Shown in pieces: positions 22,516 through 44,876 of a DNA stretch of 57,811 nt; the stretch's first letter is position 1; every line of letters starts with the position of its first letter. A program made the position numbers and the translations under genes. The DNA comes from Escherichia phage vB_EcoS_AVIO78A. The notes under the pieces were generated by a model. That model was given only the letters and a program-made list of their open reading frames with translations, did no database searches and was not told the origin of the DNA. The stretch lies in sequence record MZ726797.1. One strand, 5' to 3'.

Positions 22516-22545
22516 AAGGGGTGGCTTATGCTGCCCCTTTTTTCA
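22516..22545 (+). terminator. intrinsic terminator after capsid gene
   Basis: AAGGGGTGGC..GCTGCCCCTT hairpin plus T6. Confidence 0.7.
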
Positions 22546-22558
22546 TGAGGTTAAAATC

Positions 22559-22912
22559 ATGCGTAATTCATATGATCCGTCACTGAAATATGTTTTCACC
22601 CGTCCGATGCTGTGGAATGGTAAACAGATGTCCGCTGGCGATAAAGTATCAACATCAAAAGCTACCCCGGCTGTTTTAAATGCCCTTGTGCGTATGCATC
22701 ACATTGAACCAGCTACTGCGACTGTTGAAGAACCAGTGACTGTAGCAATCGAAGAATCGGCATCAACCACAGCTGCTGAAATCCGACGTGACGCGCCAAA
22801 AACCTATAACGTTTATGTTATGGGTATGCCGATGAATTCAGAATCGTTTAGTAGTAAAAGTGCCGCTGCTGAATGGTGTGAATCACAAGGCTTGACATAT
22901 AACTATTCTTGA
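22559..22912 (+). CDS. hypothetical protein
   Basis: ORF 22505..22912 trimmed to ATG 22559 with GAGG RBS. Confidence 0.45.
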   Translation: MRNSYDPSLKYVFTRPMLWNGKQMSAGDKVSTSKATPAVLNALVRMHHIEPATATVEEPVTVAIEESASTTAAEIRRDAPKTYNVYVMGMPMNSESFSSKSAAAEWCESQGLTYNYS

Positions 22913-23389
22913 CCTATTGTTAAGTCAGTGACAGAACTGCATAGCAGACACTATCACTTAATCGGTCGAAAGACGCCGGATAAACGTAACCGGCACATAA
23001 CAGATAAGAGCATTGAGTCGATAATCGTGAAGAGTCGGCGCGCCTGGTTAGCCAGTGCTCTTATCGTTGTGGTGAATTGCAGTTCTCAGAAACAACCAGA
23101 AGATAAGCGCCTGGCACTGCAACCAAACACTCGCTGATAAGGAGGTGATCCTTATCTTGCTGGCGGGAAAGCCGCAAATCGTGGGTAAAGCATGTTGTGA
23201 AACATCCTGAACTGCGTGTCGTTTTACATAACTGGTTATTCACGTGTCACGCATAGGGGTATGTTGGGACGTCAGGTGTGGATGACCAGTTATGTAAAAC
23301 CCTCATTATCACCCAGAGCCATTTGCCGTCTGTTTAAGACGGCTTTTTTTCGTGCTAATATAACGAAAACATTTCTCACAGGTGATCAC
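22913..23389 (+). other. ~480 bp apparently non-coding, highly structured region (nested inverted repeats, consensus SD-like TAAGGAGGTGATC, terminator-like hairpin at ~23324..23350)
   Basis: direct reading; no convincing ORF with RBS. Confidence 0.45.
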
Positions 23390-23800
23390 ATGGCTATTAC
23401 AGTTGAAGGTATTCGTTATTTGATCAGTGTCCCTGATGTTACTGATGAACAAATTCAGTGGTACATTGACAACGGTTATACAAATCCTCTCAGTATTTGC
23501 GTCGCTCTCTGTGATTATATGGCGTCCATCGCCAGTAACGATACTGATATTAAAGTAGGTCCGATCTCACTCAGCAGTAGTCAGTCAGCAGACGCCTGGA
23601 ATAAACTTAAAAAAGATTTTATTTTACGTATTAATACTGGCGCTGATTCAGGTGGCGGTTTGTTAGGTGGTTTTATGGGTGTTGGTGGAGCTACGTTAAC
23701 TGGCGCTGGTATGCAACCCGCTATTCAACGTGGTCAGTTCGACAACCCACCTGTAACACTTGAAACCGGTGGTCGTGCACTTAACGAGGGTGAACGGTGA
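23390..23800 (+). CDS. head-tail connector/adaptor-like protein (putative)
   Basis: ORF 23216..23800 trimmed to ATG 23390 (AGGTGA RBS); alternative start 23261 would span the hairpin. Confidence 0.35.
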   Translation: MAITVEGIRYLISVPDVTDEQIQWYIDNGYTNPLSICVALCDYMASIASNDTDIKVGPISLSSSQSADAWNKLKKDFILRINTGADSGGGLLGGFMGVGGATLTGAGMQPAIQRGQFDNPPVTLETGGRALNEGER

Positions 23801-34463: not shown

Positions 34464-36499
34464 ATCAATCCGTAAACGACATTGTGTATCGTGACGTCGC
34501 CAACAACAGAGGAAACATTAAAATTAATTTCAGCTTTGTAAGCTCCTGGTGGAACGCAATCCACCAAAGCATAAAAATTGAATGTGCCCCCTACTGGGAT
34601 GTTATACCCTATGGAATTTGCGACAGCATTTCCAGCCTGGTCCAGAAATCTAATTGTCGCTAGGGTTGTTGTTGCATTTTTAGCCCAAAAACCAAACTGG
34701 AAATATCTACCAGGCTCACAATCAATAACTGATTGAGTGAAGTTAGCTGAAGCATCTGCGGAGGGAACATTAATAATTATTGATGTTGAGAACATCATGT
34801 CATTAGGTACGTCATTGTTATATGATGCCGTAACAACACCTGTACCAGTTTGCGAGAGTGTCCAGTTAGATATGTTAAAAAACTGTCCTGAGCCATTACT
34901 AATACTATTAATATAAGGGCTTACAATGCACCCTAAATTCCAGTTACTTGTGATAAATCCTGCCCGTGGATAGCACCCTCTGGACATTACTTTTTTGCTC
35001 GCGCCACCTATCAACTGCCTGGTAGGGAATCCAGTGGCAATAGTAGTGTTCCCGTACAAAGGCAGGGAGCAATTGCTAAGAATAACCACGCCGTCATCGT
35101 TACTTACCACAGGAACAGAACTAAATCCGACAGGCAGTAATACTGTTGAGTCTTTGATGCTTAATCTTGAACTTCCTGCAACGGTAAAGCCAACAAAACT
35201 CTGACCAGGTTGATATTCTATATTTCCGTTGGAAAAAACAACCGTAGCACTATCTGATAATGCTATAGCAGGGTCGAAATAATCTGCTTTCTTACCAGCA
35301 GGAAGTGAGCAGCTATCGAATATAAATTGACCATTAACAAACGTGAAAGGTCCGCCGTTGTCAACCATCCAGCAGTGATTAAATTTTATAACCTCACCTG
35401 AATTCGCTGGTGAATTGAAAATAGCAGAATTTGTAAAACTTCTGGACAACGTACATTTATCAAAAAGGATACGATATGCATTATCAAGAAACTCAATTCC
35501 GGCAGTTGAGATAAACCCACTATTAGAGATTCTTAACTCTGATACTTCACCACTAGTAGAACCACCGATAGCCAATTTCCTGGTCCCTTTTCCAACAAAT
35601 GACACACCACTCATCAAAGCATTTGCGTTAACTGCATCTCTGTTAGTGTAATCCGCGCCTGTATTAATAATGGTTAGGTAGTAGTCACCCGTTACGGAAG
35701 CAGATTCTGTTAAAGTGCATTTATTTTTTCCAATAAGTGCGCCTTTTGCTATGTCTAAAACAATCGGTGTTGTTATCTCACCAGAAACAGGGACTACACA
35801 GTCAAATCCGGCAGAATTTATTTTGTTGATGAATACCGCCAAATCTTCGGTCCCAGTATAGCCAGCATCATACACATCCACGGTGCCATTGAAGAATTTT
35901 CTTTTCCATACCACCCCACTTCCTGAGAAGGTAACAATATTGTCTATAGTGGTATCCTCGCTAACAGCTACCATAATACCACCGCCAAGATTAAACCCGC
36001 TCACATACGAGTCAAGAATTATGGAATCGCCGATTGATCCTGATATTGATGATAACTCAGAAACTGATGATACAGTCCCTATATAAGACAAACCATTTGA
36101 TTTGTTTAAATCAGAACGTAACATTAAATCCGTCTGATTAACCCAGTGTGTAGCATCAATACCACCCGTAGTTGCAGGTGTTGAACCAGGTGGAACAATT
36201 TTAGGCAATGCACCCATCCACTGATAATAATTACCCTCTGATTCATATAATAGAGTTTCCCAACGATGATTTATCGTACCACCTGCTTCAAAAGAACCAT
36301 CAGCAGGTTTAAAACCAACCGAACTAAAAAAACCATCAAGCGTCGGATTAGTAACTGATTCGCCACGGATTGTATCTGTCACTTCCAGTGCAGGATTACC
36401 AGCAGCATCACGACTTTTCGCAACGTGTTCAATATGTAAAATCGCTTGTTTGCCTGTTTTCAAATCATCAGCACTGATATAATCGTTACAGTTAGCCAT
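34460..36499 (-). CDS. tail fibre / tailspike-like receptor-binding protein, reverse-oriented; composition suggests beta-helix (possible depolymerase)
   Basis: ORF 34460..36526 (TTG) trimmed to ATG 36499 with GGAGA RBS; 679 aa Gly/Ser/Asn/Thr-rich. Confidence 0.5.
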   Translation of the reverse strand: MANCNDYISADDLKTGKQAILHIEHVAKSRDAAGNPALEVTDTIRGESVTNPTLDGFFSSVGFKPADGSFEAGGTINHRWETLLYESEGNYYQWMGALPKIVPPGSTPATTGGIDATHWVNQTDLMLRSDLNKSNGLSYIGTVSSVSELSSISGSIGDSIILDSYVSGFNLGGGIMVAVSEDTTIDNIVTFSGSGVVWKRKFFNGTVDVYDAGYTGTEDLAVFINKINSAGFDCVVPVSGEITTPIVLDIAKGALIGKNKCTLTESASVTGDYYLTIINTGADYTNRDAVNANALMSGVSFVGKGTRKLAIGGSTSGEVSELRISNSGFISTAGIEFLDNAYRILFDKCTLSRSFTNSAIFNSPANSGEVIKFNHCWMVDNGGPFTFVNGQFIFDSCSLPAGKKADYFDPAIALSDSATVVFSNGNIEYQPGQSFVGFTVAGSSRLSIKDSTVLLPVGFSSVPVVSNDDGVVILSNCSLPLYGNTTIATGFPTRQLIGGASKKVMSRGCYPRAGFITSNWNLGCIVSPYINSISNGSGQFFNISNWTLSQTGTGVVTASYNNDVPNDMMFSTSIIINVPSADASANFTQSVIDCEPGRYFQFGFWAKNATTTLATIRFLDQAGNAVANSIGYNIPVGGTFNFYALVDCVPPGAYKAEINFNVSSVVGDVTIHNVVYGLI

Positions 36500-44048: not shown

Positions 44049-44800
44049 CAGAATGCTCCACCCATTTGTTTAACAGATTCAGCCTGACCAACAATGTTTT
44101 CAGCATCAGCCGGGGCCGCGTTAATGCGTTCAATCAGTTCGATGATAGATTTCAGTTTTACCGGGTCGTCAATCTGCATCACGTTCTGAGTTTCATACAG
44201 TCCCATGATTCGCTGACTTAATGGCGCAGCACGGTCACCCGTAATTTGTCCAAACATCTGCATCAGTGCTGACTGAAGAACCTGTGTGTTATAAACTTTA
44301 GCCGGATCCGTGGTTACAGGTTGCTCGACAGGCGCGACTGGTGCAGCCGGTGCTGCTGGTACAACTGGAGCTACCGGAGCGGCAGGAACCGCTGGAGCAG
44401 GATCAACAGGTGCTACATAACCTGGTGCAAGTTCTGCAGGTCCGGTATAACGCCCTGCTTCAACTGCTTCAGCGATAAGTTCACGTTTAACACCGTCAAC
44501 AAACGCTTCATCCAGTTTTTTCTTTTGACGCCACAGACCATCACCTTTGTTCAGGGATTTACTGTCAGTGTGGATACGCGGATCATGACGCAAACCCCAT
44601 TTGTCGAACTCTTCAGTACTGGTTTCGTTATCGTCAACATCTTCAGTTGGTGCAGATACAACAGGCAGTGATTCAGCAACGACAGAAACAATTTCTTCTT
44701 TCGTAATCGGTGCGACACTGTTACCAGCAATCGCTGCTGCCAGATTGTTGATCGCAGTTTCCAGACCCGGAGCAGTTACAAGTAATTTAACTTCGAACAT
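44048..44800 (-). CDS. hypothetical protein with Pro/Ala-rich linker
   Basis: ORF track; first gene after tandem promoters. Confidence 0.5.
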   Translation of the reverse strand: MFEVKLLVTAPGLETAINNLAAAIAGNSVAPITKEEIVSVVAESLPVVSAPTEDVDDNETSTEEFDKWGLRHDPRIHTDSKSLNKGDGLWRQKKKLDEAFVDGVKRELIAEAVEAGRYTGPAELAPGYVAPVDPAPAVPAAPVAPVVPAAPAAPVAPVEQPVTTDPAKVYNTQVLQSALMQMFGQITGDRAAPLSQRIMGLYETQNVMQIDDPVKLKSIIELIERINAAPADAENIVGQAESVKQMGGAF

Positions 44801-44832
44801 TACGTTTTCCTCTTGTTGTTTGGTTGTCGCTA

Positions 44833-44876
44833 ACTTTAAAAGGTGTTGTGCAATCTGTCAAGAATTATTTTACACT
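44833..44876 (-). promoter_or_regulatory. conserved promoter (-35 TTGACA, -10 TAAAGT), proximal of tandem pair
   Basis: motif family member. Confidence 0.6.

Follow-up and report, generated by a model that had tools for sequence, protein, structure and literature searches.

Putative structured RNA modules between the head and tail genes of a Sashavirus-like phage, including a hairpin family shared with lambda and P1-like plasmids

Hairpins cleaved by ribonuclease III (RNase III), among them the R-sites of phage T7, the N-leader of lambda, sib and the 16S and 23S stems, consist of a stem of about 20 bp with a bulge or mismatch, lie within polycistronic transcripts between functional units and occur as related copies within and between phages. 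The species 1 and 2 RNAs of phage T4, GOLLD and ROOL are structured RNA genes of unknown function that are located beside phage tRNA genes and co-oriented with them. In lambdoid phages, the prophage anti-sRNAs AgvB and AsxR and the small RNAs (sRNAs) StxS and Pas are encoded in the 'moron' region downstream of PR', and AgvB combines a conserved 3' part of about 42 nt with a variable 5' part of 14-18 nt (PMC4104026; PMC7547250; bioRxiv 10.64898/2026.05.13.724894). Here, these systems are compared with an island at positions 22913-23390 in the genome of Escherichia phage vB_EcoS_AVIO78A (sequence record MZ726797.1; the whole stretch of 57,811 nucleotides is referred to as the window). The island contains a hairpin, termed R1 in this work, that also occurs in lambda and in P1-like plasmids, and it is very probably a compact non-coding RNA unit, i.e. 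a local, tRNA-less version of the tRNA/non-coding RNA (ncRNA) islands of enterobacterial phages.

The window stems from a Sashavirus-like siphophage. By blast, the 501 bases around the island share 94-96% identity with Escherichia phage Bas82, Sashavirus 536P12 and Salmonella phage Sasha. The island separates a small open reading frame (ORF; stop at 22912), located 3' of the major capsid gene, from the first tail-side gene (ATG at 23391). A first-pass annotation made from the sequence alone had described 22913-23389 as a highly structured non-coding island between head and tail modules, and both parts of this description hold. The + strand of the island folds with -164.2 kcal/mol as compared to -130.0 +/- 6.7 kcal/mol in 100 shuffles (z = -5.08), none of which folded as well, and the - strand yields z = -4.83. 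Inverted repeats, likewise reported there, were also recovered, with arms of 23, 13 and 9 nt, the last forming a perfectly complementary long-range pair (Table 1). The longer ORFs in the island (22928-23137 on the + strand, 23061-23243 on the - strand and a GTG extension of the tail gene, 23216-23390) are not conserved, because exchanges of the R1 interior and indels that are not multiples of three disrupt all three in close relatives. A conserved protein-coding gene in related phages had been named as one observation that would overturn the finding; among relatives, no ORF in the island is kept in length and frame together with a ribosome-binding site (RBS).

R1 units follow a fixed order, namely a small hairpin (H0) or a terminator, CACAAC-A-GGUAAGAGCAUUG, a variable interior that we call the payload, CAGUGCUCUU(U/A)(C/U)C-GUUGUG, GUGAAU and often a second small hairpin. 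The copy in the window has all of these parts (H0 or terminator, CACAAC-A-GGUAAGAGCAUUG, payload, CAGUGCUCUUNCC-GUUGUG and GUGAAU tail), and its local fold reaches z = -3.65. The conserved arms thus named form a bulged basal stem of about 19 bp that carries the exchangeable payload at its apex. A covariance model (CM) for the family, which was defined in this analysis, was built from 36 copies and matches the window over its full length at 22969-23100 (94.8 bits, E 1.6e-26), the only sense copy there; the window copy was part of the seed alignment, so that this match holds by construction and independent support comes from blastn. The latter found 22984-23078 of the window in 126-153 phage records, namely those of lambda itself and of phages from Salmonella, Escherichia and Klebsiella, and in about 760 E. 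coli replicons, with 175 chromosomal and 590 plasmid places; identity of the R1 stretch is 90-93% to lambda, INT55 and Klebsiella phages. A second copy suspected by eye from arm-like sequence at 23093-23163 is not supported by the CM.

A pattern scan of IMG/VR with fixed arms and free interior gave at least 120 R1 loci. In the first 100 sources searched, the CM found about 110 matches on the sense strand with 24-114 bits, antisense matches scoring 18-28 bits, and further matches appeared in later searches. Tandem arrays comprise up to three copies. CM-confirmed copies are restricted to Enterobacterales and their phages, with the exception of one metagenome-assembled genome labelled Cellvibrionaceae; about 70 chance matches were expected in a scan of genome contigs with a looser pattern, from which the CM retained only Enterobacterales loci. 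The position of H0 is taken in other loci by GCUCC/GGAGC, GCCAC/GUGGC, CCUCG/CGAGG or an intrinsic terminator such as tR' of lambda. Among the matches listed, R1 is immediately preceded by a T-run in 61 of 128 loci, and 41 of 128 possess the 3' hairpin in its consensus form. Full-text searches with R1 and payload sequence strings found no papers on R1 or on the neighbouring module C described below.

Compensatory changes in the stem and the bias of its wobble pairs point to R1 folding as an RNA on the sense strand. In the model-fitted alignment 90.7% of the cells are paired, as opposed to 32-52% with slid partners, and 16 of the 24 pairs have changed on both sides; the observed values were reached in none of 500 shuffles. 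Helix 3 varies as GC, CG, AU and UA, the small flanking hairpins H0 and H3 covary, and diverged copies exist in which the arms are fully compensated (AUGAGAGUAUUG/CAGUAUUCUCAU, GGAAAUAGUAUUG/CAGUACUAUUCCC, ACUAUC/GAUAGU, ACAUC/GAUGU). Furthermore, G.U outnumbers A.C by 61:5 on the sense strand of 39 distinct arm sets. This excess fits an RNA helix on the sense strand and not duplex or cruciform DNA. Most weight is given to the diverged copies, since the alignment is fitted to the model and the sample was chosen with fixed arms.

The payloads are 27-109 nt long and comprise 62 distinct sequences as first counted among the matches listed, or 66 when the count is drawn a little wider, grouping into at least 30 unrelated types. 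The payload in the window is of the lambda type, being 97% identical to that of lambda (match at lambda 44787-44869) and only 50% identical to that of Sasha. Sashaviruses that are otherwise 94-99% identical carry three unrelated payloads at the island site. Where the same payload type occurs on different arms, the payloads are 82-92% identical and the arms only 65-84%. As judged from these identities, payloads and arms are separately evolving modules. A canonical T-arm hairpin is present in 3 of the 30 payload types among the matches listed, compared with 0.09 expected.

Near-identical arms around unrelated interiors are also what would be seen if R1 and its neighbours were selfish or structural DNA, that is mobile palindromes or recombination linkers in which RNA structure is incidental. 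REP/BIME and ERIC elements and the PeSL cassettes of T4 resemble R1 in being imperfect intergenic palindromes in transcribed DNA that spread between genomes and are shuffled as modules, and integron attC sites share with it extrahelical bases and a centre that varies between inverted ends that do not. In keeping with such an origin, R1 sequences are 88-93% identical between otherwise unrelated phages, tandem arrays reach three copies, presence, absence, duplication and fused-arm derivatives occur within a single genus (SP069, PDP46 and BDX09P1), and AAC...GTT at the base of the stem together with the extrahelical base is loosely attC-like. The attC core RYYYAAC / GTTRRRY is nevertheless absent, the window reading ACATAAC / GTTGTGG and lambda GCACAAC / GTTGTGC. 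No integrase is found in the annotated neighbourhoods and the units between copies are tRNAs or ncRNA and not ORF cassettes as in an attC cassette array; neither an integrase nor a transposase accompanies the element in the loci examined. Identification as a miniature inverted-repeat transposable element or REP palindrome was rejected in view of interiors of at least 30 unrelated types, of the 'empty' junction in SP069, which lacks a clean target-site duplication, and of the strand-biased wobble pairs. R1 differs from all these DNA elements in this strand bias, in its strict co-orientation with tRNAs and promoters and in interiors that are conserved by type, and the covariation of the flanking H0 and H3 hairpins likewise speaks for RNA. 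A purely DNA-based origin is accordingly considered unlikely. Even if the modules were mobile palindromes or remnants only, they would explain why a hypervariable hotspot recurs between head and tail genes in Sashaviruses and 9NA-like phages.

The co-orientation just mentioned is seen throughout the loci among the matches listed: all tRNAs within 1.5 kb of R1 copies are on the strand of R1, and 39 of 129 loci have a consensus-like promoter upstream on this strand, as against none with such a promoter on the opposite one. Most copies are situated between a gene for a Q-type antiterminator and a holin gene, directly after a tR'-like terminator. In lambda, the match (44787-44869) begins 7 nt past the end of 6S RNA at tR', lacks a tRNA and represents one of two long stem structures near the start of the late transcript. 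In a P1-like plasmid, R1 lies inside a tRNA cluster, and further copies with the same closing stem and other interiors start right after tRNA 3' ends. The islands of Skatevirus are antisense to tail genes and equipped with their own promoter (TTGACA-17-TAGATT) and their own terminator. The tRNA-free Jedunavirus island of about 480 nt is antisense to baseplate genes and contains a TTGACA-17 promoter, R1, module C, an R1-type 3' hairpin and a terminator. It is shown that the modules are horizontally shared and recur in changing combinations, keeping their secondary structure, in lambdoid, P1-like, Sashavirus, 9NA-like, Skatevirus and Jedunavirus genomes.

R1 and a tRNA are immediate neighbours in some loci (L016, L029 and L002). 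A gene for tRNA-Arg(TCT) was seen to start at, or 2-3 nt within, the final GUG of the outer stem of R1 (L016 8085-8225; L053; L119). In such an arrangement cleavage by RNase P would therefore set the 3' end of R1, and the outer stem would compete with the acceptor stem of the tRNA. The CACAAC motif does not qualify as a general tRNA leader, as it was present in only 3 of 30 tRNA contexts.

At the site of the island itself, the Klebsiella relatives KPN_H2 and Carvaje carry R1 and a tRNA-Ser, the latter lying exactly between the CA-rich motif and module C, and INT55 has a degenerate tRNA adjoining R1. Together with the loci in which R1 abuts a tRNA, these cases are what a decaying tRNA island would leave behind, in which the modules would be functionless leaders, spacers and processing signals of lost tRNA genes. 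In the window, no tRNA was found by ARAGORN, and the island region gave no match to RF00005 even at E up to 10. However, lambda and the Jedunaviruses keep the modules without a tRNA, and in the Jedunaviruses a strong promoter and terminator are still intact. Between nine Sashaviruses, identity is 100% in module D and in the region behind the payload, and helices are preserved by compensatory changes. Decay of a tRNA island is hence regarded as quite improbable.

An alignment of the island in nine relatives reveals how its modules are gained and lost. Blast with 23140-23216 (module C) found this part to be common to 9NA-like and Klebsiella phages, with 76-78% identity in Jedunavirus myophages; 23212-23312 (module D) is found only in nine Sashavirus records, all 100% identical, as is the region downstream of the payload in these nine. 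SP069 is devoid of the first 140 nt of the island, PDP46 has an additional unit with fused arms, BDX09P1 contains two hairpin elements, and in 9NA a different sequence is present where the R1 element sits in relatives. Module D and the stretch CCUCAUUAUCACC that follows it are missing from 9NA, SP069 and KPN_H2, all three of which have the terminator. By this comparison, the island is a mosaic of RNA modules with a promoter-like signal at one end and a terminator at the other. The promoter arrangement is also present as TTGACT-17-TATTGT in 9NA, KPN_H2 and Carvaje, while SP069 has TATCGT; its -35 element overlaps the last codons of the upstream ORF, and coding constraint may partly explain the conservation of this putative promoter. 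The 5' leader is kept in Sashaviruses, and its AGAACTGCATAGCAGAC also in KPN_H2 and Carvaje.

Module C contains the palindrome with a perfect Shine-Dalgarno (SD) sequence to which the first-pass annotation had drawn attention, GATAAGGA-GGTGA-TCCTTATC at 23136-23156; TAAGGAGGTGATC at 23138-23150 occurs only once in the window, and 23138-23151 is complementary to the 3' end of 16S rRNA at all 14 nt. GAGGUG and AUCUUGCUG are invariant across 9NA-like, Klebsiella and Jedunavirus phages, and each of the two module C hairpins displays one compensatory pair, GC to AU and UA to CG, in three sequences each. The statement that no ORF in the island has a credible RBS needs one amendment, for a TTG micro-ORF that starts 6 nt after the GGTGATC of the perfect SD. 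A conserved peptide is unlikely, because the micro-ORF has 17 codons in 9NA-like phages and 6 in the Jedunavirus homologues; its substitutions track RNA pairing and not codon position. Module D folds with z = -5.34, and its GGGG-loop apex recurs in Skatevirus islands within a different long stem. The description of the island as structured RNA is supported by three modules whose homologues keep their helices by compensatory changes, by a strand bias of wobble pairs and by homologous islands between promoters and terminators of their own.

Likeness of the island to rrn operons is confined to the 14-nt 16S 3'-end complement in the window and a copy of a 16S rRNA helix in a Jedunavirus island; matches to the 23S 5' flank noted by eye were not recovered as significant. 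The latter copy, 47 nt in the island of Escherichia phage ZCEC13 (L134 1621-1667, also L135), corresponds to helix 11 and is recognised by the Rfam SSU model with E 1.1e-7. Identity to E. coli rrsH is 86% over 29 nt of the copy, and its stem shows a compensatory change, AUGGUG..CACCAU versus UAGGUG..CACCUA.

The first-pass annotation had interpreted the island as a structured RNA or a regulatory attenuator of tail gene expression. As a cis-acting attenuator or insulator, the folded leader and its terminator would set head read-through or translation of the first tail gene, with alternative SD/anti-SD pairings exposing or hiding the terminator or the tail RBS. The canonical terminator with a run of seven T reported about 40 nt ahead of the tail gene indeed exists: a terminator scan of the region, which gave three terminator-like sites versus 0.8 expected, located a G+C-rich stem-loop directly before a T-run that ends 40 nt upstream of the tail ATG. 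Moreover, CCUCAUUAUCACC could form base pairs with the SD of module C or with GGUGAU in the tail RBS, and in all Sashaviruses and 9NA-like phages the island between head and tail genes is oriented alike. On the other hand, the candidate switch sequences, i.e. module D and the anti-SD-like CCUCAUUAUCACC, are not conserved outside Sashavirus and are lacking in 9NA, SP069 and KPN_H2, which retain the terminator. R1 and module C occur in islands without a co-oriented downstream gene or antisense to their neighbours, as in the lambda late leader, the tRNA islands of P1-like plasmids and the antisense units, and the element is not linked to one regulated downstream gene across relatives. No pairing that competes with the terminator stem (23325-23343) appears in the minimum free energy (MFE) or centroid structure. 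Finally, an extended -10 motif (TGnTAnAAT) lies between terminator and RBS and is conserved as TGcTAAAAT in KPN_H2 and TGaTAGAAT in 9NA and SP069 despite a 22-nt indel, which suggests that the tail genes may have their own promoter. The island is probably not a switch for tail genes, and attenuation in cis is rated as improbable. The terminator is judged to be real and must limit head-side read-through; it is kept in Sasha, 9NA, SP069 and KPN_H2, although both its loop and its stem have changed in SP069.

R1 belongs to no family in Rfam. The Rfam search suggested by the first-pass annotation gave no match in the whole window at the gathering threshold (Rfam 15), and at E up to 10 the region around the island yielded nothing except terminator-driven chance matches to isrP (20.6, threshold 45), suhB (15.8, threshold 41) and STnc560 (13.7, threshold 55). 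Across 17 related loci nothing reached threshold apart from tRNAs and one group II intron. On the strength of its alignments, R1 is an RNA hairpin family absent from Rfam, the unusual trait of which is a conserved stem with exchangeable, individually conserved tips. The proposed comparison with related phages by covariance gave the paired changes described above for R1 and for both module C hairpins.

RNase III hairpins are among the closest known systems. The geometry of RNase III sites, about two turns of double-stranded RNA often with a bulge or internal loop, is found at 22996-23071 as 6 bp, a bulged A and 13 bp. Unlike in T7 R-sites, the arms of R1 are conserved in sequence across unrelated phages and the apical domain is hypervariable by type while conserved within a type; cleavage is predicted. 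The title of Daniels et al. (1988; Virology 167:568), listed as reference 49 of PMC7547250, reports sites of RNase III processing close to where the late transcript of lambda begins. The stems of about 20 bp may be RNase III substrates because they agree with the established length requirement of the enzyme and with that title. The GenBank records of lambda have no RNase III feature in the R1 region.

GOLLD and ROOL are large ornate folds, whereas the island strings together hairpin modules that are small and independent and has no Rfam match. The AgvB-type sRNAs share with R1 the lambdoid neighbourhood and the combination of a conserved scaffold with a variable part, and the GcvB target motif CACAACA also opens the left arm of R1. 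They are, however, Hfq-binding RNAs of 51-74 nt that end in a terminator and differ in sequence and architecture, and CACAAC is base-paired in R1. With the Rfam models for AgvB, AsxR and STnc100 giving no match, identity with AgvB, AsxR, StxS or Pas was dismissed: the neighbourhood is the same, the RNA a different one. Y RNAs and bacterial YrlA are comparable in having a long, conserved, bulged basal stem, to which the 5' and 3' parts contribute, and an apical module that varies and in some cases resembles a tRNA (T-arm). They differ in that R1 matches no Rfam family, hence no Y RNA model if Rfam has one, and in that a T-arm is found in only 3 of 30 payload types. To our knowledge, E. coli K-12 has no Rsr/Ro60. 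The M3 RNA of phi80, a hairpin substrate of RNase P, was also considered and set aside, as the phi80 record annotates it as an oop homologue and phi80 does not contain R1.

The right arm of R1, CAGUGCUCUU(U/A), followed by GUUGUGGUG, is reminiscent of the boxA and boxC of rrn operons. The rrn boxA reads UGCUCUUUAACAA and that of lambda CGCUCUUA. R1 might accordingly load NusB/NusE and shield the untranslated island from Rho. Nearly all consensus copies contain GCUCUUU or GCUCUUA, and the element opens long untranslated stretches. Yet a 19-bp stem sequesters the motif, agreement with boxA is limited to 7 of 12 positions, and diverged copies keep the pairing and lose the motif (GAUCUUA, AUUCUCAU, ACUAUUCC, CGCCGUUUCC). 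A boxA element of the single-stranded GCUCUUUAACAA kind was therefore rejected, the only matches being the base-paired GCUCUU(U/A), and an rrn-type antitermination function appears highly improbable.

Our best explanation for the whole is that of a non-coding modular RNA unit that is processed by the host, carries payloads acting in trans and ends in a terminator insulating head from tail genes; it is put forward tentatively, as it falls a little short of being probable in our estimation. Host RNA polymerase would transcribe the island from the sigma-70-like promoter or via read-through from head genes and stop at 23325-23350. Host RNase III would then cut the long stems, tRNA-processing enzymes would act where tRNAs abut, and stable hairpin RNAs would be released. 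The payloads and the perfect anti-16S module could act in trans as decoys or sponges for host translation or RNA-processing factors, and not in cis on the tail genes. The 14-nt 16S complement, the helix-11 copy in the Jedunavirus island and the T-arm hairpins among the payloads are in keeping with mimicry of the translation apparatus. The terminator would insulate the head unit from the tail unit, and the extended -10 promoter would restart transcription of the latter. Taken by itself, the combination of processing and trans-acting payloads is possible yet doubtful.

Several observations weigh against the RNA reading and its mechanism. The stem arms vary little in the sample, most copies come from a search pattern in which the arms are fixed, and the covariation of R1 rests on about a dozen diverged copies in an alignment fitted to the model. 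The global MFE structure of a 600-nt lambda leader does not contain R1, the right arm of which pairs elsewhere, and the lambda RNase III sites could sit in the tR' hairpin instead. Recombination at the DNA level could also give near-identical arms around unrelated interiors. Sixteen payloads compared with E. coli genomes matched unannotated spots only and no annotated RNA gene, no complement to the payload loop above chance level occurs in the window, and no payload target was found. Promoter use, processing and RNA stability are steps that we infer.

In a wider and rather unlikely extension, R1 would be a general RNA scaffold of enterobacterial phages, including lambda, and of P1-like plasmids, whose basal stem directs processing and whose tip bears a small functional RNA, of which there would be dozens. 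Combined with tRNAs, tRNA-like arms, the 16S helix-11 copy and the anti-16S sequence, it would form 'decoy islands' that mimic the translation apparatus and blunt RNA-targeting immunity or manipulate ribosomes; the rapid exchange of payloads among near-identical phages would reflect an arms race. Provided that R1 and the modules beside it are functional RNAs, an unrecognised structured RNA lies 7 nt past the 6S RNA terminator of lambda, and hundreds of E. coli prophages and P1-like plasmids contain it as well. Such an RNA would offer a handle on a role of phage tRNA islands beyond tRNA supply and on the stable ncRNAs beside them, and the conserved stem with its exchangeable tip would constitute a natural, host-processed scaffold for the expression of small RNAs.

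Annotations of hypothetical proteins across R1, present in many database records, would also have to be revised. Such coding sequences (CDSs) include lambda orf-64 (lambda 44621-44815), PDP46_0046 (L130 504-725), Bas77_0057 (L009 2166-2648) and a CDS of ST147-VIM1phi7.2 (L008 2523-2660); they are probably not genes. The features of the island are compiled in Table 1.

Table 1. Parts of the island and adjoining signals, with positions in the window
Feature	Position	Strand	Remarks
Sigma-70-like promoter into the island (putative)	22892..22920	+	-35 TTGACA 22892-22897, 17-nt spacer, -10 TATTGT 22915-22920; 10 of 12 matches
5' leader	22926..22974	+	AGAACUGCA (22933-22941) can pair with UGCAGUUCU (23078-23086), enclosing the R1 unit; 9 of 9 complementary, in MFE
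H0, 5-bp hairpin	22975..22994	+	GCCGG-N10-CCGGC; directly 5' of R1
R1 hairpin	22996..23071	+	outer stem 22996-23001 / 23066-23071; bulged A 23002
R1 inner 13-bp stem	23003-23015 / 23053-23065	+	payload 23016-23052, lambda type
R1 3' tail and degenerate 3' hairpin	23072..23100	+	GUGAAU; family consensus of hairpin GCGCA-GGCUGA-UGCGC
Small hairpin and CA-rich motif	23096..23130	+	CCAG...CUGG (23096-23114), then CACUGCAACCAAACAC
Module C	23131..23216	+	SD-like TAAGGAGGTGATCC (23138-23151) within palindrome 23136-23156
Hairpin Ca of module C	23163-23175	+	GCGG-GAAAG-CCGC
Hairpin Cb of module C	23192-23205	+	AUGUU-GUGA-AACAU
TTG micro-ORF of module C	23157-23210	+	17 codons
Module D, long hairpin	23217..23305	+	arms 23221-23243 / 23278-23300, 91% complementary; apical GCAUA-GGGG-UAUGU hairpin 23251-23264
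CCUCAUUAUCACC	23301..23313	+	complementary to module C SD and to GGUGAU of tail-gene RBS; inverted-repeat search and MFE
Intrinsic terminator	23325..23350	+	stem-loop 23325-23343 (7 bp, 5 G-C pairs, loop of 5), then T7 23344-23350
Extended -10 promoter-like motif, tail genes (putative)	23353..23361	+	TGcTAATAT; read from sequence
Tail-side gene RBS and start	23380..23393	+	AGGTGATC and ATG 23391; RBS and start at the same place in the Sasha annotation

The KPN_H2 counterpart of the CA-rich motif is located directly 5' of the tRNA-Ser; in the window, no tRNA intervenes between this motif and module C. A direct repeat, GAACTGC, at 22934-22940 and 23209-23215 flanks R1 and module C, is present at both positions in KPN_H2 as well and may be a recombination junction or due to chance. 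Ahead of the island, a strong intrinsic terminator (22516-22548; 10-bp stem and T-run) directly follows the major capsid gene and precedes the small ORF (22560-22912); the weak isrP match in Rfam came from this terminator.

On the - strand of the window, 35521-35604 gave a weak R1 match (7.6 bits, E 0.66) that covers the 3' tail and hairpin only and is regarded as chance. Inner-arm pattern matches were also seen at six loci in three genomes of Morganella morganii (L174, L175, L207, L208, L210 and L211), where partial CM scores of 22-24 bits cover model positions 36-102; they may represent a distinct relative of R1 or chance. In an IMG/VR contig, a group II intron (RF02005, 186.6 bits; L016 13005-13230) lies about 5 kb from the unit of R1 and tRNA-Arg. 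In the P1-like plasmid pCREC455-3 (L002 4235-4810), the tRNA/R1 island adjoins a gene for Tad2 (anti-Thoeris) and is located just upstream of pacA.

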